64,000 bases of DNA. Source: an uncultured Pseudomonadota bacterium. Lineage in GTDB: Bacteria; Pseudomonadota; Alphaproteobacteria; JACZXZ01. The notes beneath the pieces are model-generated. The model saw only the letters and a program-made list of their open reading frames with translations. It was not told the origin of the DNA and searched no databases. The position numbers and the translations under genes are program-made. How positions within the stretch are numbered: position 1 is the stretch's first letter; every line of letters begins with the position of its first letter. The stretch lies in assembly GCA_963749075.1 (NCBI GenBank), contig CAVVLJ010000016.1, positions 672,001 to 736,000 of the forward strand. Reading direction: 5' to 3'. Below are positions 3,027-53,597 of this stretch, piece by piece.

Positions 3027-3160
3027 CCCCTCTCCTCCTTTAGGAGGAGAGGGTAAGGGTGAGGAGGTGGACGTGCAAAACATGTCGTCGGCACCGGGGC
3101 CTCCTCACCTTCCCATCCCTTCGGGATGGGCCCCTTCCTCTCCTCCTAAAGGAGGAGAGG
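3027..3160. repeat. Gene-less inverted doublet of the DUF559-associated hairpin repeat
   Basis: CCCTCTCCTCC-ttta-GGAGGAGAGGG-taag-GGTGAGGAGG ... CCTCCTCACC-tt-CCCATCCC-ttc-GGGATGGG-cccctt-CCTCTCCTCC-taaa-GGAGGAGAGG; same hairpin sequence as the ends of 28386-28870. Confidence 0.9.
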
Positions 3161-3176
3161 AGAGCTGCCTTCACGC

Positions 3177-7736: not shown

Positions 7737-7833
7737 TTTCCGCTCCCTGTTCGCGGCGCGTAGACCGCCTTGCTCATTATGCGACTGAGCAGCTTAACCT
7801 ATTGAGCATTTTGTTCCAGCCTTGTCGAGTGTC

Positions 7834-7896
7834 TTCCCTCTCCCGTTTACGGGAGAGGGAAGGGGCCCATCGCAAAGCGATGGGAAGGGTGAGGGA
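7834..7896. repeat. Single copy of hairpin+GGTGAGG repeat
   Basis: TTCCCTCTCCCG-ttta-CGGGAGAGGGAA-gggg-CCCATCGC-aaa-GCGATGGG-AAGGGTGAGGGA, right at the hydantoinase B stop. Confidence 0.88.
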
Positions 7897-26685: not shown

Positions 26686-28365
26686 ATGGCCGAGGTCAAG
26701 AGCGACATCGAGATCGCGCGCGAGGCGCGCCTGCAGCCCATCGAGGCGATCGGCGCCAAGCTCGGCATTCCGGCCAACGCCCTCTTCCGCTTCGGCCATT
26801 ACAAGGCGAAGGTCAGCCTCGACCATGTGGCCAGCCTCAAGGACCGCCCCGACGGCAGGCTCGTGCTGGTCACCGCGATCACGCCGACGCCCGCGGGCGA
26901 GGGCAAGACGACGACGACGGTCGGCCTCGGCGACGCGCTCAACCGCATCGGCAAGGGCGCCGCGATCTGCCTGCGCGAGCCGAGCCTGGGGCCCTGTTTC
27001 GGCGTCAAGGGCGGGGCTGCCGGCGGCGGCTATGCCCAGGTGGTGCCCATGGAGGACATCAACCTGCATTTCACCGGCGATTTCCACGCCATCACGTCTG
27101 CCAACAACCTCCTCGCCGCCATGGTCGACAACCACGTCTATTGGGGCAATCCCCTCAACATCGACGTGCGCCGCATCAGCTGGCGCCGCGTGATCGACAT
27201 GAACGACCGGGCGCTGCGCGCAATCGTCTCCTCGCTCGGCGGTGCGGCCAACGGCTTTCCCCGCGAGGACGGCTTCGACATCACGGTCGCCTCCGAGGTG
27301 ATGGCGATCTTCTGCCTCTCCAAGGACATGAACGACCTCATGCATCGCCTCGGCAACATCGTCGTGGGCCAGACGCGTGAGCGGAAGCCCGTGCGCGCGC
27401 GCGAGCTCAAGGCCGACGGCTCGATGGCCGTGCTCCTCAAGGACGCGCTGGCGCCCAACCTGGTGCAGACCCTCGAGGGCAATCCCGCCTTCGTCCACGG
27501 CGGCCCCTTCGCCAACATAGCACACGGCTGCAACTCGGTGATGGCGACCACGACCGCGCTCAAGCTCGCCGACTACGTGGTGACCGAGGCGGGTTTCGGC
27601 GCCGACCTGGGCGCCGAGAAGTTCTTCGACATCAAGTGCCGCAAGGCGGGGCTCAAGCCCGAGGCGGTGGTCATCGTGGCGACCGTGCGGGCGCTCAAGA
27701 TGCACGGCGGCGTGGCGCGCGAGGAGCTCGGCAAGGAGAATCTCGCGGCACTCGACAAGGGCTTCGCCAACTTGAAGCGCCATCTCGAGAACCTCGGCCG
27801 CTTCGGCGTGCCGGCGGTGGTGGCGATCAACCGCTTCAACTCCGACACCGCGGCCGAGCACGAGCTCATCCGCAAGAAGTGCGGCGAGATCGGCACAGAG
27901 GCCGTCCTCTGCACCCATTGGGCCGAGGGGAGCAAGGGCACCGAGGCGCTCGCGCGCACCGTGGTCAAGCTCGTCGAGAGCAAGGCGGCGCAGTTCAAGT
28001 ACCTCTATCCCGACGACATGCCGCTTCTGGAGAAGGTGCGCACCATCGCGAAGACGCTCTACGGCGCCGCGGACATCGCGGCCGAGCAGCGCGTGCGCGA
28101 CCAGCTCAAGGACTACGAGAAGAGCGGCTACGGCCACTTCCCCGTGTGCATGGCCAAAACCCAGTACAGCTTCTCGACCGATCCCAATTTGAAGGGCGCT
28201 CCCTCGGGACACGTGCTCGCCGTGCGCGAGGTGCGCCTTGCCGGCGGCGCCGAGTTCGTCGTCGCCATCTGCGGCGAGATCATGACCATGCCCGGCCTGC
28301 CCCGCGAGCCCGCCGCGCACCGCATCCGCATCAACGAGCAAGGCCTGGTCGAGGGGCTGTTCTGA
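26686..28365 (+). CDS. fhs: Formate--tetrahydrofolate ligase
   Basis: [60 protein letters not shown]. Confidence 0.98.
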
Positions 28366-28385
28366 TTCTGAGGCGAGCGCCGATC

Positions 28386-28870
28386 ACTCCCTCTCCTCCT
28401 TCAGGAGGAGAGGGTCGGGGTGAGGAGGCCTTCGAAGAACTCACCATGCCCGATCGCCAAACAAAGCAACGCCGCGCACCAGGCTCGAACGCCCGCGCCC
28501 GCGAGCTCCGCCGCGAGCAAACCAAAGCCGAGCAAAAACTCTGGCGCCTCCTCCGAGATCGCCAGCTCGAAGGGGCGAAATTCCGCCGCCAAATGCCGAT
28601 TGGACCCTATATCACCGACTTCGCCTGTCCGATCGCCCGTCTCGTCATCGAGCTCGATGGGGGTCAGCATGCCGATCAGCAGGCGCATGACGAGGCACGC
28701 ACGCGCATACTCGTCACGCAAGGCTATCGCGTGCTTCGCTTCTGGAACAACGAGGTGATGGAGAACCTCGAGGGCGTGGCGGAGGCGATACGGGCTGCGC
28801 TCCGGGCGTAACGGCTTGGCTTCGACACCTCCTCACCCCGACCCTCTCCTCCTAAAGGAGGAGAGGGAGT
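28386..28870. mobile_element. Putative autonomous element: DUF559 nuclease gene between 43-bp hairpin-containing terminal inverted repeats
   Basis: Left 28386-28428 ACTCCCTCTCCTCCttcaGGAGGAGAGGGtcggGGTGAGGAGG; right 28828-28870 is its reverse complement with one mismatch in the loop; no target-site duplication seen. Confidence 0.75.
28446..28811 (+). CDS. DUF559 / Vsr-like endonuclease domain protein (121 aa)
   Basis: RARELRREQT.AE..LW..LR, KFRRQ.PIGPYI.DF.C...RLVIELDGGQH, D..R...L...GYRVLRFWNNEV. Confidence 0.92.
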   Translation: MPDRQTKQRRAPGSNARARELRREQTKAEQKLWRLLRDRQLEGAKFRRQMPIGPYITDFACPIARLVIELDGGQHADQQAHDEARTRILVTQGYRVLRFWNNEVMENLEGVAEAIRAALRA

Positions 28871-29991
28871 CATGCGAACTCGCGGCGGATCGCCGCGCTG
28901 TGCTCGCCCAAGGCGGGGACCTTGCCGAGGGGCTCGGCGGGCTCGTCCGGGTGGCGCACGGGAGGGGCGATGAGCTCGATGGCGCCGGCCTCGCTCGCGA
29001 CCGTGGTGCGGCGGAGCTGGGGATGGCGGCTCGCGGCGGCGACGCCGTTGAGCGTGCCGAAGGCGATGCCGAAGCGCCTGAGCTTGGCGATGAGAGCCTC
29101 GCGCTCGAGCGAGGTGAAGGTGCGGGCGATCACGGCGTCGAGTGCGGCGCGGTTGGCGAAGCGGTCGGGGGGGCCGGCGAAACGCGGGTCGTCGGCGAGT
29201 GCAGGATCCTCGAGCACGCCCGAGCAAAGTGCCCGCCACTCGCGCTCGTTCTGGATCGAGATGACGACGGGCTCGCCCCGCGTCGGGTAGGCGCCGTAGG
29301 GTGCGATCGAGTGGTGGCTGATGCCGACGCGCGGCACCACCACGCCGCTGTGGATGTACTGGAGGAGGAGGGGCGACATCCAGTCGGCGACGGTGTCGAA
29401 GAGCGAGACCTGCACCCCGCTGCCGCGCCCGCTCCGCGTGCGCGCATGGAGCGCCTCGAGGAGTGCCGAATAGGCGGTGAGGCCGGTCGAGATGTCGCAG
29501 ATCGAGACGCCGACGCGGCCCGGCGCCTCGGGCGTGCCCGTCACCGCGGCGAGGCCGCTTTCGGCCTGCACCAGGAGGTCGTAGGCCTTCATCTCGCGGT
29601 AGGGCCCCTCCTCGCCGTAGCCCGAGATGTCGCAGGTGACGAGACGCGGGTACGCCGCGCGCAAGTTCGCCGAGCCGAAGCCCGCGCGCTCGGCGGCACC
29701 GGGGGCGAGGTTCTGGATGAAGACGTCGGCTCTGGCGAGGATGCGGCCGAGGAGGCGGGCGTCCTCCGCCTCCTTGATGTCGAGCTGAAGCGACTCCTTG
29801 CCGCGGTTGAGCCAGACGAAATACGAGCAAAGCCCGTTGACATAGTCGTCGTAGCGCCGCGCGAAGTCGCCCTCGGGCCGCTCGATCTTGATGACGCGCG
29901 CGCCGGCGTCGGCGAACTTGACGCTGCAGAAGGGTGCGGCGACCGCCTGCTCGAGGGAGACGACGAGGAGGCCTGACAGCGGCTTCGTCAC
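28870..29991 (-). CDS. CaiB/BaiF family III CoA-transferase
   Basis: LEQAVAAP, GARVIKIE, LNRGKES, QNLAPG, AYDLLVQAESG, PALGEH; GTG start inferred. Confidence 0.92.
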   Translation of the reverse strand: MTKPLSGLLVVSLEQAVAAPFCSVKFADAGARVIKIERPEGDFARRYDDYVNGLCSYFVWLNRGKESLQLDIKEAEDARLLGRILARADVFIQNLAPGAAERAGFGSANLRAAYPRLVTCDISGYGEEGPYREMKAYDLLVQAESGLAAVTGTPEAPGRVGVSICDISTGLTAYSALLEALHARTRSGRGSGVQVSLFDTVADWMSPLLLQYIHSGVVVPRVGISHHSIAPYGAYPTRGEPVVISIQNEREWRALCSGVLEDPALADDPRFAGPPDRFANRAALDAVIARTFTSLEREALIAKLRRFGIAFGTLNGVAAASRHPQLRRTTVASEAGAIELIAPPVRHPDEPAEPLGKVPALGEHSAAIRREFA

Positions 29992-30001
29992 GGCGGCGGC
30001 C

Positions 30002-30478
30002 TCAATAGCGGTTGCCGCGCTTGTCGGTCCACACGTCGCCCTCGGCCGCCGCGCGCACGTGAAGGTCGACGTCCGGATAGCTGCATTCGTCCTCCATGCT
30101 GCGGCTGCCGATGGCGAGGAAGCGCGCCGTGCGCGCACTGCGGTTGACGAGATGATGCCCATCCGCCTTGCCGGCGGGGAAACCCGCGGCGAGGCCCGGA
30201 GTGAGCGTCTGCTCGCCGGCCTCGGTCACCAGCACGAGCTCGCCCTCGAGCATATAGACGAGCTCGTCCTCGCGGCTGTGCCAGTGCCGCTGGGAGGACC
30301 AGGCGCCGGGCGGCACTTCGACGAGATTGACGCCGAACTGGGTGAGCCCCACGGCCTCGCCGAGGCGGCGCCAGCGGCGCGCGGCGACGGGCGCCTTGAA
30401 TGGCTCGGGATAGCCCGAGCCCGCTTGCTCGGGAAGCGCTCTCGGGTCGAACGCGGGCAGCGTCACGCGCGCGGGCAT
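30002..30478 (-). CDS. Cupin domain protein
   Basis: GLTQFGVN, SSQRHWHSREDE, FPAG...GHHLVN, YPD. Confidence 0.9.
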   Translation of the reverse strand: MPARVTLPAFDPRALPEQAGSGYPEPFKAPVAARRWRRLGEAVGLTQFGVNLVEVPPGAWSSQRHWHSREDELVYMLEGELVLVTEAGEQTLTPGLAAGFPAGKADGHHLVNRSARTARFLAIGSRSMEDECSYPDVDLHVRAAAEGDVWTDKRGNRY

Positions 30479-35950: not shown

Positions 35951-36039
35951 CACCCCCCACTCTACCCTCCCCCTCAAGGGGGGAGGGGAAGCTGAGTAGC
36001 CCCCTCCCCCCTTGAGGGGGAGGGATGGGGAGGGGGGTG
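35951..36039. repeat. Inverted doublet of a variant hairpin repeat
   Basis: CACCCCCCACtctaCCCTCCCCC-tcaa-GGGGGGAGGG ... CCCTCCCCCC-ttga-GGGGGAGGGatggGGAGGGGGGTG. Confidence 0.82.
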
Positions 36040-38040: not shown

Positions 38041-38209
38041 TCCCTCACCCTCCCATCCCTTCGGGATGGGCCCCTCATCGATCCGCTTCGCGGCTCGATC
38101 CCGCAAGCGGGAGAGGGATTTCGGCATACGCCATCGATGCCTTCGATACCCTCTCCCGCTTGCGGGAGAGGGAAGGGGCCCATCGCACAGCGATGGGAAG
38201 GGTGAGGGA
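38041..38209. repeat. Inverted doublet of hairpin+GGTGAGG repeat, left half interrupted by a small hairpin
   Basis: TCCCTCACCCT-CCCATCCC-ttc-GGGATGGG...CCCGCAAGCGGGAGAGGG ... CCCTCTCCCGC-tt-GCGGGAGAGGG-aagggg-CCCATCGC-aca-GCGATGGG-AAGGGTGAGGGA. Confidence 0.88.
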
Positions 38210-41336: not shown

Positions 41337-41374
41337 CCCCTCGCCCTACCCTCTCCCCCGCAAGGGGGAGAGGG
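41337..41374. repeat. Single copy of hairpin repeat
   Basis: CCCCTCGCCCTa-CCCTCTCCCCC-gcaa-GGGGGAGAGGG. Confidence 0.78.
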
Positions 41375-41431
41375 AGGCTCGGCGGGCGAGCAGGGCGGGG
41401 GAGGCCATGCTTACGCCTGCGGCAAGGGGGC

Positions 41432-49248: not shown

Positions 49249-49307
49249 CCCTCTCCCGCAAGCGGGAGAGGGAGGGGCCCATCGCGCAGCGATGGGAGGG
49301 TGAGGGA
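49249..49307. repeat. Single copy of hairpin+GGTGAGG repeat
   Basis: CCCTCTCCCGC-aa-GCGGGAGAGGG-agggg-CCCATCGC-gca-GCGATGGG-AGGGTGAGGGA. Confidence 0.88.
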
Positions 49308-49683: not shown

Positions 49684-50763
49684 ATGAATGACGGCCGCAG
49701 TCCCTCCGCAGGTGCTGACGAGCCCCTCTCCATCGAGGCGTTCGACTTCGCCCTCCCGCGCGAGCGCATCGCCCAGCATCCGGTGCGGCCGCGCGATGCG
49801 GCGCGGCTCCTTTGCGTCGGACGCGGCGGGCTCGCGGATGCCGTGGTGCGCGATCTCCCGGTGCTCCTTCGCCCGGGCGACCTCCTCGTGCTCAACGACA
49901 CGAAGGTGATCCCGGCCCGGCTCGCCGGCACACGGCGTGGCGCCAAGGTCGAGCTCACGCTCCACCGCGAGGCCGCCCCCGGCGTCTGGCGCGCCTTTGC
50001 CCGCCCGGCGCGCAAGCTCGCGGTGGGCGACCGCGTCGAGTTCGCAGCCGATTTTGCGGCCGAAGTGGCGGCGAAAGCCGCCGACGGCGAGGTCACCTTG
50101 CGCTTCGCCACCTCTGCTGCGGCGCTCCTCGCCGCCCTCGAGCGCCACGGCGCGGCGCCGCTGCCGCCCTACATCAAGCGCCCGGCCGGCGCTTCGGTGG
50201 CCGACCGCGCCGATTACCAGACCATCTATGCGCGGGCGCCGGGCGCCGTGGCAGCACCCACCGCAGGGCTCCATTTCACCGACGCGCTCTTTGCCGCCCT
50301 CGACGCGCGCGGGATAGGGCGGACGACCGTGACGCTCCATGTCGGCGCCGGCACCTTCTTGCCCGTCAAGGTGGGGGACGTGCGGCAGCACCCCATGCAC
50401 GGCGAATTTGGCGTCGTCACCGAGGAGGCCGCGGCGGCGGTGAACGCGGCGCGTGCGGCTGGCGGGCGCATCGCCGCAGTCGGCTCGACCTCCTTGCGCC
50501 TCCTCGAGAGCGCCGCCGGCGAGGACGGCCGCGTCGGGCCCTTCGCGGGCGAGACGCGGCTCTTCATCCTCCCCGGCTACCGCTTCAAGGCGGTCGATCT
50601 CATGCTCACCAACTTCCACCTGCCGCGCTCGACCCTCTTCATGCTGGTGGCGGCCTTCGCCGGGCTCGCGCGCATGCAGGCGGCCTATCGCCATGCCATC
50701 GACGCCGGCTACCGCTTCTATTCCTATGGCGACGCCTGCCTCCTCGAGCGGGCCGAGACATGA
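49684..50763 (+). CDS. queA: S-adenosylmethionine:tRNA ribosyltransferase-isomerase
   Basis: [57 protein letters not shown]. Confidence 0.97.
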
Positions 50764-51893
50764 GCGGCCGCTTCGCCTTCGCCCTCCTCGCGGCCTCGGG
50801 CGCGGCGCGCCGCGGCCGGCTCGAGACCGCGCACGGCAGCGTCGAGACGCCGGCCTTCATGCCCGTGGGCACGGCGGGCACGGTCAAGGCGATGACCGCC
50901 GAGGCCGTGCGCTCGACCGGCACCGAGATCATCCTCGCCAACACCTATCACCTGATGCTGCGCCCCGGCGCCGAGCGCTTGGCCCGGCTCGGCGGCCTCC
51001 ACCGCTTCATGGACTGGCCGGGGCCGATCCTCACGGATTCGGGCGGCTATCAGGTCATGTCGCTCGCGCAGCTGCGCACCATCGGCGAGGAGGGCGTCGC
51101 CTTCCAGTCGCACCTCGACGGCGCCCGCCATCTCCTGACGCCCGAGCGCGCTGTCGAGATCCAGCGCCTGCTCGACGCCACCATCTCGATGGCGCTCGAC
51201 GAATGCACCGGCTGGCCGTGCGACGAGGCCACGGCGGCGCAGTCAATGCGCCTCTCCATGCGCTGGGCCGCGCGCTCGCGTGCCAGCTTTGCCGAGCACA
51301 CGGGCTACGGCCTCTTCGGCATCGCCCAGGGCAGCGTCTACGCGAGCTTGCGCGAGGAATCGGCCAAGGCGCTCGCGGCAATCGGCTTCGAGGGCTATGC
51401 CATCGGCGGCCTCGCGGTGGGCGAGGGGCAGGCGCGCATGCTGGCCGCCCTCGAGGCCACGCTGCCCCATCTCCCGGCCGGCCAGCCGCGCTATCTCATG
51501 GGCGTCGGCAAGCCCGACGACCTCATCGCCGCCGTGGCGCGCGGCGTCGATCTCTTCGACTGCGTGATCCCGACGCGCTCGGGCCGCACCGGCCAGGCCT
51601 TCACCCGCCGGGGCGCCCTCAACCTGCGCAACGCGCGCCACGCCGAGGACCCGCGGCCGCTCGACGAGGCCTGCCGCTGTCCCGCCTGCCGCACCGCCAG
51701 CCGCGCCTACCTCCATCACCTGGTGAAGGCCGGCGAGATCCTGGCCGCCATGCTGCTCACCTGGCACAACCTCACCTATTATCAGGGGCTTCTCGGAGCA
51801 CTCAGGTCCGCGATCGTGGAAGGGCGCTTCGCCGAGGTTGCCGCGGCAATCGCCGGCGAGCTTGCCGCGGGGGAGGTCGAGCCCCCATGCTGA
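50760..51893 (+). CDS. tgt: tRNA-guanine transglycosylase
   Basis: [50 protein letters not shown]. Confidence 0.97.
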
Positions 51894-51973
51894 CGCGTCG
51901 GATTGACGCGGCAATCTATCGACCGGCCGCCGAGACCCATGTATGATCGGCCGATTTCAATAGGTTGGCATGC

Positions 51974-52438
51974 ATGGTTCAGGCGAAATACCGGGAGCTC
52001 ACGATCCTCGGCGGCAAGGCTCGGCCGCCGCGCTCGCCGGCCGAGGCGCGCCTCGAGAGCGTCGCCAATCCGCATCCCCGGACGGCCTATCTGGTGCGCT
52101 TCACCGCACCCGAGTTCACCTGCCTCTGCCCGCTCACCGGCCAGCCGGATTTCGCCCATCTCGTCATCGACTATGTCCCGGCCCGCCGCCTCCTCGAGAG
52201 CAAGTCGCTCAAGCTCTACCTCGCCTCCTTCCGCAACCACGGCGGCTTTCACGAGGAGACCACCCTCGCCATCGCACGGCGCCTCGAGCGCGAGCTCAAG
52301 CCGCGCTGGCTCAGGATCGGCGGCTATTGGTACCCGCGCGGCGGCATGCCCATCGACGTCTTCTACCAGTCCGCAGCACCGCCCAAGGGGCTCTGGCTCC
52401 CCGAGCAGGGCGTGCCGCCCTATCGCGGGCGGGGGTAG
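51974..52438 (+). CDS. queF: NADPH-dependent preQ0 reductase (unimodular type)
   Basis: [31 protein letters not shown]. Confidence 0.96.
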
Positions 52439-52445
52439 GGCGCCC

Positions 52446-53597
52446 ATGCACGGCACGCTCGAGGAGGCCATCCGCGCCAAGGCGGCCGAGCTCGGCTTCG
52501 ACGCCGCGGCCGTGACCGCGGCACGCCTCGACGCGAGCGCCAAGCGGAACCTCGCCGAGTATGTCGCGCGCGACTATCACGGCGACATGGCCTGGCTTGC
52601 CGACACCCTGCCGCGCCGCGGCGACCCGCAAGCGCTGTGGCCCGAGGCGAAGAGCGCCATCGTGCTCGGCCTGAGCTACGCGCCGGAGGGCGATCCGCTT
52701 GCGCTCACGCGCCTCTCCGAGCGGGGCAGCGTCTCGGTCTATGCCCGCGGCCAGGATTACCACGACGTCATCAAGAAACGCCTCAAGGCGCTGGCGCGCT
52801 GGCTCGCGGCTTACCGGGCTTGCGCCGTCAAGCTCTTCGTCGATACCGCACCGCTCATGGAGAAGCCGCTCGCCCAAGCGGCCGGCCTCGGCTGGCAGGG
52901 CAAGCACACCAACCTCGTCTCGCGCCGCCACGGCTCCTGGCTCTTCCTCGCGGCCCTCCTCCTTGACGTCGATCTCTCACCCGACGCCCCCGAGCGCGAC
53001 TGCTGCGGGAGCTGCCGGCGCTGCCTCGACGCCTGTCCCACCAAGGCCTTCCCGGCACCCTACCGGCTCGACGCGCGGCGCTGCATCTCCTATCTCACCA
53101 TCGAGCACAAGGGGCACATCCCGCGCGAATTCCGCAGAGCACTCGGCAACCGCATCTACGGCTGCGACGACTGCCTCGCGGTCTGCCCGTGGAACAAGTT
53201 CGCGGCGCGCACGCGGGAGTATGCCTTCCTGCCGCGCATCTTCCTCACGGCGCCCAGGCTAGCGGACCTCGCCCTCCTCGACGATGCCGCCTTCCGCGAG
53301 CTCTTCGCGGGCTCGCCCATCAAGCGCATCGGGCGCGCGCGCTTCCTGCGCAATGTGCTCATAGCGCTCGGCAACAGCGGCGCGCCGGCGCTGGCGCCGC
53401 GCGCCGAGCGGCTGCTCGCGGACCCTTCGCCGCTCGTGCGCGGGGCCGCCGTCTGGGCCCTCGAGCGCCTCTTGGCACCCGCGCGTTTCGCGGCACTGCG
53501 CGGGGCGCACCGGCCGCGCGAGAGGGATCCCGCGGTGCGCGCCGAATGGGATGCGGGCGCGGCCTGCCAGTCGGCCGGGCAAGCGGCGAGCGCCTGA
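52446..53597 (+). CDS. queG: Epoxyqueuosine reductase
   Basis: [55 protein letters not shown]. Confidence 0.96.

Follow-up and report, generated by a model that had tools for sequence, protein, structure and literature searches.

In REP/REPIN-RAYT systems, a small enzyme gene sits between inverted hairpin repeats, many further copies of the repeat occur as gene-less singlets and doublets, and the gene itself stays at low copy number and is often syntenic. The REP repeat has a conserved GTAG or CGTC head, and the RAYT is a Y1 HUH transposase. Miniature inverted-repeat transposable elements (MITEs) and Rickettsia palindromic elements are also short and bounded by inverted repeats, carry no enzyme of their own and include in-frame palindromic insertions. 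Here we describe a related arrangement built on a different enzyme: a 485-bp unit at positions 28386-28870 of a 64,000-nucleotide stretch of DNA from an uncultured Pseudomonadota bacterium (contig CAVVLJ010000016.1, positions 672,001 to 736,000; hereafter the window), in which one gene for a 121-amino-acid (aa) DUF559 protein is enclosed by two inverted repeat arms. By their sequence, the arms belong to a repeat family published as BoxC, PIT or TM, and we find that relatives of the gene lie beside such repeats in 10 phyla.

This repeat family has carried several names. BoxC was noted in Escherichia coli in the 1990s, PIT elements were described in 2000, and Holder et al. (2015) described the intrastrand triplex motif TM-ECO (PMC4666352). 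[quoted passage not shown] TM loci were far more variable among E. coli strains than control sites, by a mechanism that the authors did not identify, and "remnants of transposases or integrases" were never found near TM sites (PMC4666352). To Kaplan et al. (2016), these E. coli sequences were a G-quadruplex-hairpin-duplex switch, for which they refrained from suggesting a function (PMC5100583). We found no protein partner, function or origin for the motif named in either paper, and the word "endonuclease" is absent from both main texts (PMC4666352, PMC5100583).

In the window unit, the two 43-nt arms are reverse complements at 42 of 43 positions, and the lone mismatch (TTCA versus TTTA) falls in the hairpin loop. 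The hairpin, CCCTCTCCTCC(T)/(A)GGAGGAGAGGG, is perfect in both arms, its 5' side consisting of pyrimidines and its 3' side of purines throughout, and is followed toward the gene by TCG and then by the G-rich tail GGGTGAGGAGG. An earlier reading of the window, which we call the first-pass annotation, had claimed exactly this: a 121-aa DUF559 gene between 43-bp inverted repeats, with a hairpin and an inward tail at each end. Both parts of the description were confirmed from the sequence (Table 1). The left arm folds as DNA at -14.6 kcal/mol (z -2.5) and the right arm gives z -3.8 and -3.1, folding having been computed for Watson-Crick pairs only. With up to 3 mismatches allowed, the window has 5 matches to the hairpin pattern, and none of 100 shuffles has any. 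For the tail motif the window has 4 matches; shuffles average 0.43, and none of them reached 4. A repeat finder stretches the inverted repeat to 56 nt at 89% (28373-28428 / 28828-28883). The outer 16 nt of this extended repeat agree by eye at 11/16, and the partner segment of the extension, 28871-28883, is the 3' end of a CoA-transferase gene.

The arms follow the BoxC/PIT/TM plan, in which a CCCTCNCCC-type pyrimidine arm is joined through a loop to a purine arm and a 3-nt linker then leads to a G-rich third block, and by eye the window arm shares an identical 19-nt core, GGAGAGGGTCGGGGTGAGG, with TM-ECO 12 and 20. As in the published family, copies in the window are intergenic and repeated, and occur as singlets and inverted doublets. 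They differ in having a stem of 11-12 bp and a tail longer to match; their stem (CCCTCTCCT..., one register longer) departs from the strict E. coli consensus, and in certain window copies a second hairpin replaces the 3-nt linker. Judged by this likeness, the window arms are variants of the BoxC/PIT/TM family and not a new repeat. By analogy with the E. coli sequences, a single-stranded module may fold as a hairpin, an intrastrand triplex or a G-quadruplex.

The unit resembles REP/RAYT in having an enzyme gene between inverted repeat copies and gene-less inverted doublets elsewhere, here within the same window. However, its enzyme is a DUF559 PD-(D/E)xK protein rather than HUH/Y1, its arms begin ...GATCACT/CCCTCTCC and lack the GTAG/CGTC head, and its repeat has a mirror-image G-tail. 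The likeness to MITEs and Rickettsia palindromic elements lies in a gene-less doublet of the window (3028-3161) and in two loci (L001 and L010) where the unit is read through in frame within an HsdS-like open reading frame (ORF). In contrast to those elements, no target-site duplication was seen, and in place of plain terminal inverted repeats the unit has structured modules of the triplex type as its arms.

The first-pass annotation had proposed examining the flanks of other DUF559 genes for the same repeats. We selected relatives by protein similarity alone, aligning 32 relatives of the protein and scanning species-representative genomes. Of the 601 stretches matched in the scan, 595 passed confirmation; we retained the 80 best, each with 4 kb of sequence to both sides. 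These 80 of 595 loci contain 82 DUF559 genes from 10 phyla; the window genome is not included, and the top match has 66% identity. Gene starts were estimated from the alignment and control ORFs were called mechanically. The inverted-repeat score aligns 200 nt upstream of a gene to the reverse complement of 200 nt downstream, and its threshold of 13.0 was set at the 99th percentile among 569 controls displaced by 1.2-3 kb (control maximum 16). Both flanks were available for 74 genes, counting the one in the window, and 55 of these scored above 13.0 (54/73 without the window), compared to 2 of 235 control ORFs in the same loci, none of which reached 20. The proposed flank comparison thus came out clearly on the side of the association.

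A palindrome scores both ways, and we therefore compared inverted and direct scores with boundaries placed at the conserved core. With these core-based flanks, 64/74 genes had an inverted or direct score above 13; the inverted score was ahead by at least 8 in 39 of these bracketed genes, the direct score by at least 8 in 10, and 15 were ambiguous. A strict module detector found tails pointing toward rather than away from the gene in 28 versus 11 cases on the left flank and 31 versus 10 on the right, and where modules could be oriented on each side of a gene (23 genes), both tails pointed inward, as in the window, in 17. We counted 135 hairpins with a pyrimidine and a purine arm (5.7 per kb) no more than 150 nt from an end of one of the 82 DUF559 genes, and 57 elsewhere in the 80 loci (0.10 per kb, some as inward-tailed doublets), a density 56-fold higher at DUF559 gene ends than in the rest of the same loci. 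Some annotated relatives are over-long, having been translated straight through modules, which leaves terminal strings such as 'PHPDPLP.GERE' and 'AAKRWEGEG'. The association of DUF559 genes with the repeats is general and specific across the 10 phyla.

With some 11 such hairpins in 64 kb, it might be supposed that abundant intergenic palindromes have simply come to lie on either side of a short gene. Yet the arms agree at 42/43 positions with their asymmetric tails included, 0/100 shuffles give a match to the hairpin pattern, and DUF559 genes pass the flank threshold at 55/74 where control ORFs do so at 2/235. We rejected a chance neighbourhood on the flank scores, the control ORFs and the hairpin density, and assign it almost no probability.

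The hairpin subtype also goes with the protein. On a quick maximum-likelihood tree of 83 proteins and 107 columns, four hairpin classes over 45 classified genes require 13 changes versus a shuffled mean of 21.1, with 0/500 shuffles as low, although this signal is inflated by the shared labels of related sequences and by syntenic orthologues (Dyella, Pseudoxanthomonas). Host phylum, on the same rows, requires 11 changes versus a shuffled mean of 10.9, and 500/500 shuffles are as low, which means no clustering. Hairpin subtype follows the nuclease tree, not host phylum, so that the second check suggested in the first-pass annotation, whether subtype tracks protein phylogeny, also bore out the link. 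One clade with short branches and a support of 88 in the Shimodaira-Hasegawa-like approximate likelihood-ratio test (SH-aLRT) unites genes of Binatota, Nitrospirota, Acidobacteriota and Chloroflexota, all with the unusual ACTCCCCCC/GGGGGGAGT hairpin, a pattern expected from co-transfer of gene and arms.

The tail is tied to the stem in a particular way. In the window it matches the mirror image of the purine arm at 11/12 positions on the left and 12/12 on the right, starting 3 nt past the hairpin; from this fit, the G-rich "tail" is the mirror-image third block of the BoxC/PIT/TM motif. We extended the comparison to hairpins adjoining DUF559 genes, using the 62 of 79 in which the purine arm differs from its mirror image; sequence was taken up to 45 nt from the hairpin, and a fit meant G facing G, or either A or T facing A. 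A perfect fit at all positions was found for the mirror reading in 36/62 and for the direct reading in 16/62, and the mirror fit was better than the direct in 33, equal in 24 and worse in 5. Here too the tail usually starts 3 nt after the hairpin. Asymmetric subtypes keep the mirror rule (GGGGGAAGG is followed by GGATGGGGG, and GGGGGAGGG by GGGAGGGGG), which indicates that the tail co-varies with the stem, as needed for a purine-motif triplex. The pattern may be imposed by a triplex, a quadruplex or a protein.

We also compared the two arms of each element on the minimum-free-energy fold of the left arm, which includes some spurious pairs. Among 711 predicted pairs, 643 were unchanged; where both sides had changed, pairing was kept in 11 and broken in 6, and where one side had changed it was kept in 18 and broken in 33. 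Positions differing between arms made up about 6% of paired versus 160/873 (18%) of unpaired sites, and clean cases of compensation are seen in the second hairpins of L002, L072 and L060. These figures lend modest support to selection on each arm's own fold.

The enzyme itself is a recognisable family member. The 121-aa product matches Pfam DUF559 (E 3.1e-44) and has all the invariant residues of the relatives' alignment. Its AlphaFold2 model (mean pLDDT 83.7) has as its top Foldseek match in the PDB an uncharacterised DUF559 protein of Neisseria gonorrhoeae (3hrl, E 3e-7), followed by the catalytic domain of the homing endonuclease I-Bth0305I (3r3p, E 1.8e-4, TM-score 0.62/0.76). A profile search agrees with Foldseek, matching I-Bth0305I at E 0.0015; sequence identity to that enzyme is 21%. 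Further Foldseek matches are the nuclease domains of AbaSI and PvuRts1I, and Vsr at E 0.04. In the predicted structure, the nearest functionally characterised relative is I-Bth0305I. A survey of PD-(D/E)XK nucleases puts VSR, DUF559 and DUF2726 in one group, and places I-Bth0305I, listed as a group I intron homing endonuclease, with VSR and DUF559 (PMC3424549). The window unit thus shares its nuclease fold with I-Bth0305I, the best-matching solved structure of known function. Unlike that intron-borne enzyme, it has no intron or intein: Rfam, searched at gathering thresholds over the whole window, gave 0 matches, by which the arms are no known RNA family and an intron is absent.

DUF559 is a large family (27,554 clusters at 50% identity match at E <=0.001, and 14,277 at 1e-10), and the literature searched contained no established function for its short stand-alone members. 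A defence-system library returned weak partial matches only (DpdF, 1.9e-5; a methyl-directed restriction enzyme, 6.5e-4), and we set a role as a defence system aside. A Caulobacter protein shows one role of a DUF559 domain in a cell: VsrA, which shares the Vsr fold superfamily and has a DUF559 domain, is required for the SOS response in cells without the ScmA cytosine methyltransferase (PMC12907096). That requirement indicates that DNA damage in vivo can be provoked by a DUF559 protein. We found no mention of flanking repeats in that paper's account of VsrA (PMC12907096).

VsrA also suggests the main rival explanation, in which DUF559 serves the host in repair or as a guard, acting alone as a Vsr-like T:G nickase; the flanking modules would then be cis packaging (insulators, read-through barriers or mRNA end hairpins) and the dispersed modules unrelated to it. 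Besides the functional tie of VsrA to a cytosine methyltransferase (PMC12907096), the relatedness of the fold to Vsr fits this explanation, as does a DUF559 gene that is single-copy and syntenic within genera. So does the placement of the hairpins, which directly follow the stop codons of both neighbouring genes; the two neighbours converge on the unit, and the CoA-transferase stop codon (28870-28872) overlaps the right arm's final base. However, the window protein reaches 18.4 bits on the Vsr family model TIGR00632, below the cut-off of 97.85, and a scan of 185 window ORFs turned up no DNA methyltransferase domain, linkage being judged within the window. Packaging fares no better: PIT/TM elements had no promoter or terminator activity (PMC4666352), the arms have no T-run, and a scan of 28200-29000 found no sigma-70 promoter and no intrinsic terminator at the arms. 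Packaging would also leave the same-subtype gene-less doublets and the mirror-symmetric tail unexplained. We consider a host nuclease with packaging hairpins unlikely.

Instead we favour a RAYT/REPIN-like partnership, here between a PD-(D/E)xK nuclease and BoxC/PIT/TM repeats, in which we infer binding, cutting and mobility; our confidence in it stands about halfway. The nuclease would recognise the folded or distorted module and nick or cut there. The ensuing repair, whether it proceeds through gene conversion, template switching or slippage, would serve to copy modules, homogenise them or remove them, and now and then would do so with the gene as well. The gene-bearing unit would be the master copy and the gene-less modules its non-autonomous relatives, related as RAYT is to REP/REPIN, with hydrolytic chemistry of the homing-endonuclease type replacing HUH strand transfer. 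Nuclease action at the modules would account for the reported instability of TM loci. Going further, DUF559 may be the missing partner of BoxC/PIT/TM across bacteria, spreading, homogenising and deleting repeats by cutting the module folded as hairpin-triplex or G-quadruplex DNA, which would make this a new class of structured-repeat system driven by a nuclease, a wider proposal that we offer tentatively and think somewhat more apt to fail than to hold.

E. coli K-12 offers an independent view of this partnership. It has one DUF559 gene, ycjD (1351407-1351760, minus strand), which occupies the sapF-fabI site, where other lineages have the eefRABCD operon (PMC12817139). On the gene strand, the ycjD ORF runs into a degenerate hairpin (CCCTCTCCC...GCGAGGG) at its 3' end. 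BoxC/TM-ECO number 9 (1351204-1351239) lies about 170 nt downstream of the stop codon, and between it and the gene is a partial second copy of the last ~40 nt of ycjD (L081:3300-3420). The sequence downstream of ycjD looks like the remains of a rearranged or second unit. Of the 23 modules, 1 is near ycjD, a count that refers to K-12; the 2048 genomes without a ycjD match at the sensitivity used lie outside it. Among 5426 complete E. coli genomes, extra ycjD-like copies, as a sign of recent movement, gave no indication of proliferation. With the gene single-copy and fixed and the repeats many, E. coli presents the RAYT/REP pattern and not that of a proliferating insertion sequence.

A number of observations weigh against the partnership, or against the more mobile forms of it. 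A hydrolytic PD-(D/E)xK nuclease alone cannot join DNA strands. The unit ends (...CCGATC/ACT and AGT/CATGCG..., the slash marking the boundary) show no direct repeat that would represent a target-site duplication. DUF559 is the sole ORF between the arms, and the unit has neither the transposase gene nor the target-site duplication of an insertion sequence; searches of 185 window ORFs (131 of at least 170 aa and 54 of 115-169 aa) gave no transposase, integrase or Y1 family. The lack of a transposase, an integrase and a target-site duplication, together with convergent fhs and caiB flanks, were part of the first-pass annotation and were borne out by Pfam searches of the 185 ORFs and by the end sequences. 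In Dyella and Pseudoxanthomonas, the gene is at the same place in related species together with its repeats, which suggests that it moves rarely, if at all. A ycjD match occurs in 3378/5426 complete E. coli genomes, at a median of 1 place per genome and a maximum of 2. We ruled out typical plasmid cargo, a relative being present in 46/72,556 plasmid records, mostly megaplasmids or mislabelled chromosomes. Active transposition is therefore disfavoured by the lack of target duplication and of strand joining, by low copy number, by synteny and by plasmid rarity.

Other points of the same kind concern the repeats and the sampling. No flanking repeat was found at 10/74 genes, and direct instead of inverted repeats were found at another 10/74. 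The N. gonorrhoeae relative of the solved DUF559 protein 3hrl has direct module flanks with a direct repeat of ~75 nt (L082:1360-1420, 1940-2020), and the module flanks are likewise direct in a copy on the cyanobacterial plasmid pAQ6 of Picosynechococcus (L083:1390-1450, 1890-1950). The REP/REPIN-like architecture with another enzyme class, proposed in the first-pass annotation, is partly supported: the flanked gene and the gene-less doublets fit it, and the inverted order prevails but is not universal. That annotation had not recognised the arms as BoxC/PIT/TM, nor the tail as the third block of that motif. The protein tree is poorly resolved, with 50/80 inner branches below SH-aLRT 80 (drawn open). 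Since the sample is the closest 80 of 595 loci, the result covers this subfamily and not necessarily all 27,554 DUF559 clusters. PIT/TM elements were found to form no stable triplex in vivo, besides lacking promoter and terminator activity (PMC4666352), and VsrA is read by its authors as a T:G mismatch repair nickase (PMC12907096).

A further alternative separates the nuclease from the spread of the repeats. Something else, be it an unseen transposase, replication slippage or another enzyme or process, could have dispersed modules that then accumulated beside DUF559, or DUF559 could be a passenger in pre-existing doublets, a homing gene parasitising a host repeat. Most modules are indeed gene-less (2 of ~11 flank the gene in the window, and 1/23 is near ycjD in K-12), inward-tailed doublets exist without a gene, and the nearest functionally characterised structural relative is a homing endonuclease. 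Yet transposase, integrase and Y1 families are missing from the window ORFs, as they are from the surroundings of TM sites (PMC4666352), and passive accumulation predicts neither the 56-fold hairpin density nor the match between subtype and tree; the homing variant fits both. Taken together, we regard this family of explanations as doubtful, and we retain the partnership of nuclease and repeat as the preferred reading.

The DUF559-repeat link appears new. No published connection between DUF559 and BoxC/PIT/TM was found in the literature searched, the original BoxC and PIT papers being outside its scope; the supplements of PMC4666352, whose flanking-gene tables may list ycjD, were also outside this search. 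A link that spans phyla gives two orphans, DUF559 and the BoxC/PIT/TM repeats, as candidate partners for each other, and the question is directly testable in E. coli K-12, where a single gene, ycjD, accompanies 23 repeats. Should the nuclease indeed read the motif in its folded state, DUF559 would be a naturally occurring enzyme that recognises triplex or quadruplex DNA, and the REP/RAYT way of life would have a second solution, independent of the first.

Several loci depart from the single pair of arms. At L053:3850-4900, ATCACTCCCCCCTTGAGGGGGAGTCGG hairpins stand in series on both sides of the DUF559 gene as an array, each trailed by a similar stretch of ~50 nt. In L010:2843-5173 (776 aa) and L001:2936-5110 (724 aa), DUF559 and both ACTCCCCCC/GGGGGGAGT hairpins lie in frame within an HsdS-like ORF, directly after the conserved 'FIDFDPV(R/H)AKAAL', and in translation the palindromic hairpins read 'ITPPL(R/G)GSR' and 'TPPQGGSD'. 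The representative library contains several ~715-aa proteins with DUF559 at the same relative place (P0158, P0193, P0212, P0213 and P0270). Other ORFs contain two or three DUF559 stretches each (P0121, 377 aa; P0122, 262 aa; P0184; P0231), which suggests tandem units translated as a single protein.

The features of the window are collected in Table 1.

Table 1. Coordinates of the DUF559 unit, its neighbouring genes and the sibling modules in the 64-kb window.
Feature	Positions	Strand	Description
Left arm	28386-28428	+	ACT, hairpin 28389-28414 (11-12 bp stem), linker TCG, G-rich tail GGGTGAGGAGG aimed at the gene
DUF559 gene, 121 aa + stop	28446-28811	+	Small PD-(D/E)xK / Vsr-like nuclease fold (predicted)
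Right arm	28828-28870	-	Module of the left arm on the opposite strand; hairpin 28842-28867; tail aimed at the gene
Weak outward extension of the inverted repeat	28373-28385, partner 28871-28883		Possibly chance
Formate-tetrahydrofolate ligase	26686-28365	+	Pfam FTHFS 1.2e-270
Family III CoA-transferase	28870-30162	-	Pfam 2.2e-98
Gene-less inverted doublet, 11-bp-stem subtype	3028-3161		Left module 3028-3067, right module 3100-3161
Solo composite module	7833-7896	+	Hairpin, second hairpin CCCATCGC AAA GCGATGGG, tail GGGTGAGGGA; DNA fold z -6.6
Solo composite module	38149-38209	+	Subtype as 7833-7896
Solo composite module	49249-49307	+	Subtype as 7833-7896
Third subtype	35965-36037	+	Two hairpins (CCCTCCCCC/GGGGGAGGG), then G-rich tail
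Fourth subtype, solo module	41349-41404 (approximate)	+	CCCTCTCCCCC/GGGGGAGAGGG, then G-rich stretch

All of the ~11 perfect hairpins of the CCCTC.../...GAGGG kind in the window lie outside ORFs with Pfam matches. The exact 11-bp-stem subtype occurs four times, in the two arms of the unit and in both halves of the gene-less doublet, whose tails both point inward across a 32-nt spacer. In the right module of the doublet, an additional small hairpin, CCCATCCC GAA GGGATGGG, separates the main hairpin from the tail. The second hairpin of the three solo composite modules is CCCATCGC-NNA-GCGATGGG, relative to which that of the doublet is a compensated change. The CCCTCCCCC- and CCCTCTCCCCC-stem subtypes share the 64 kb, which contains just one DUF559 gene.

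We considered whether gene-less doublets are internal deletions of a gene-bearing unit. Nothing in the spacer of the window doublet visibly resembles the sequence immediately within the unit's arms, and a doublet at L009 has ~18 nt past its tail in common with a gene-bearing unit and no coding remnant; on these comparisons, an origin by internal deletion is not supported.

One of the solo composite modules (49249-49307) lies immediately upstream of a run of queuosine genes at 49684-53594, identified by Pfam as QueA-like, tRNA-guanine transglycosylase, QueF-like and QueG, which is ordinary and unrelated to the unit.

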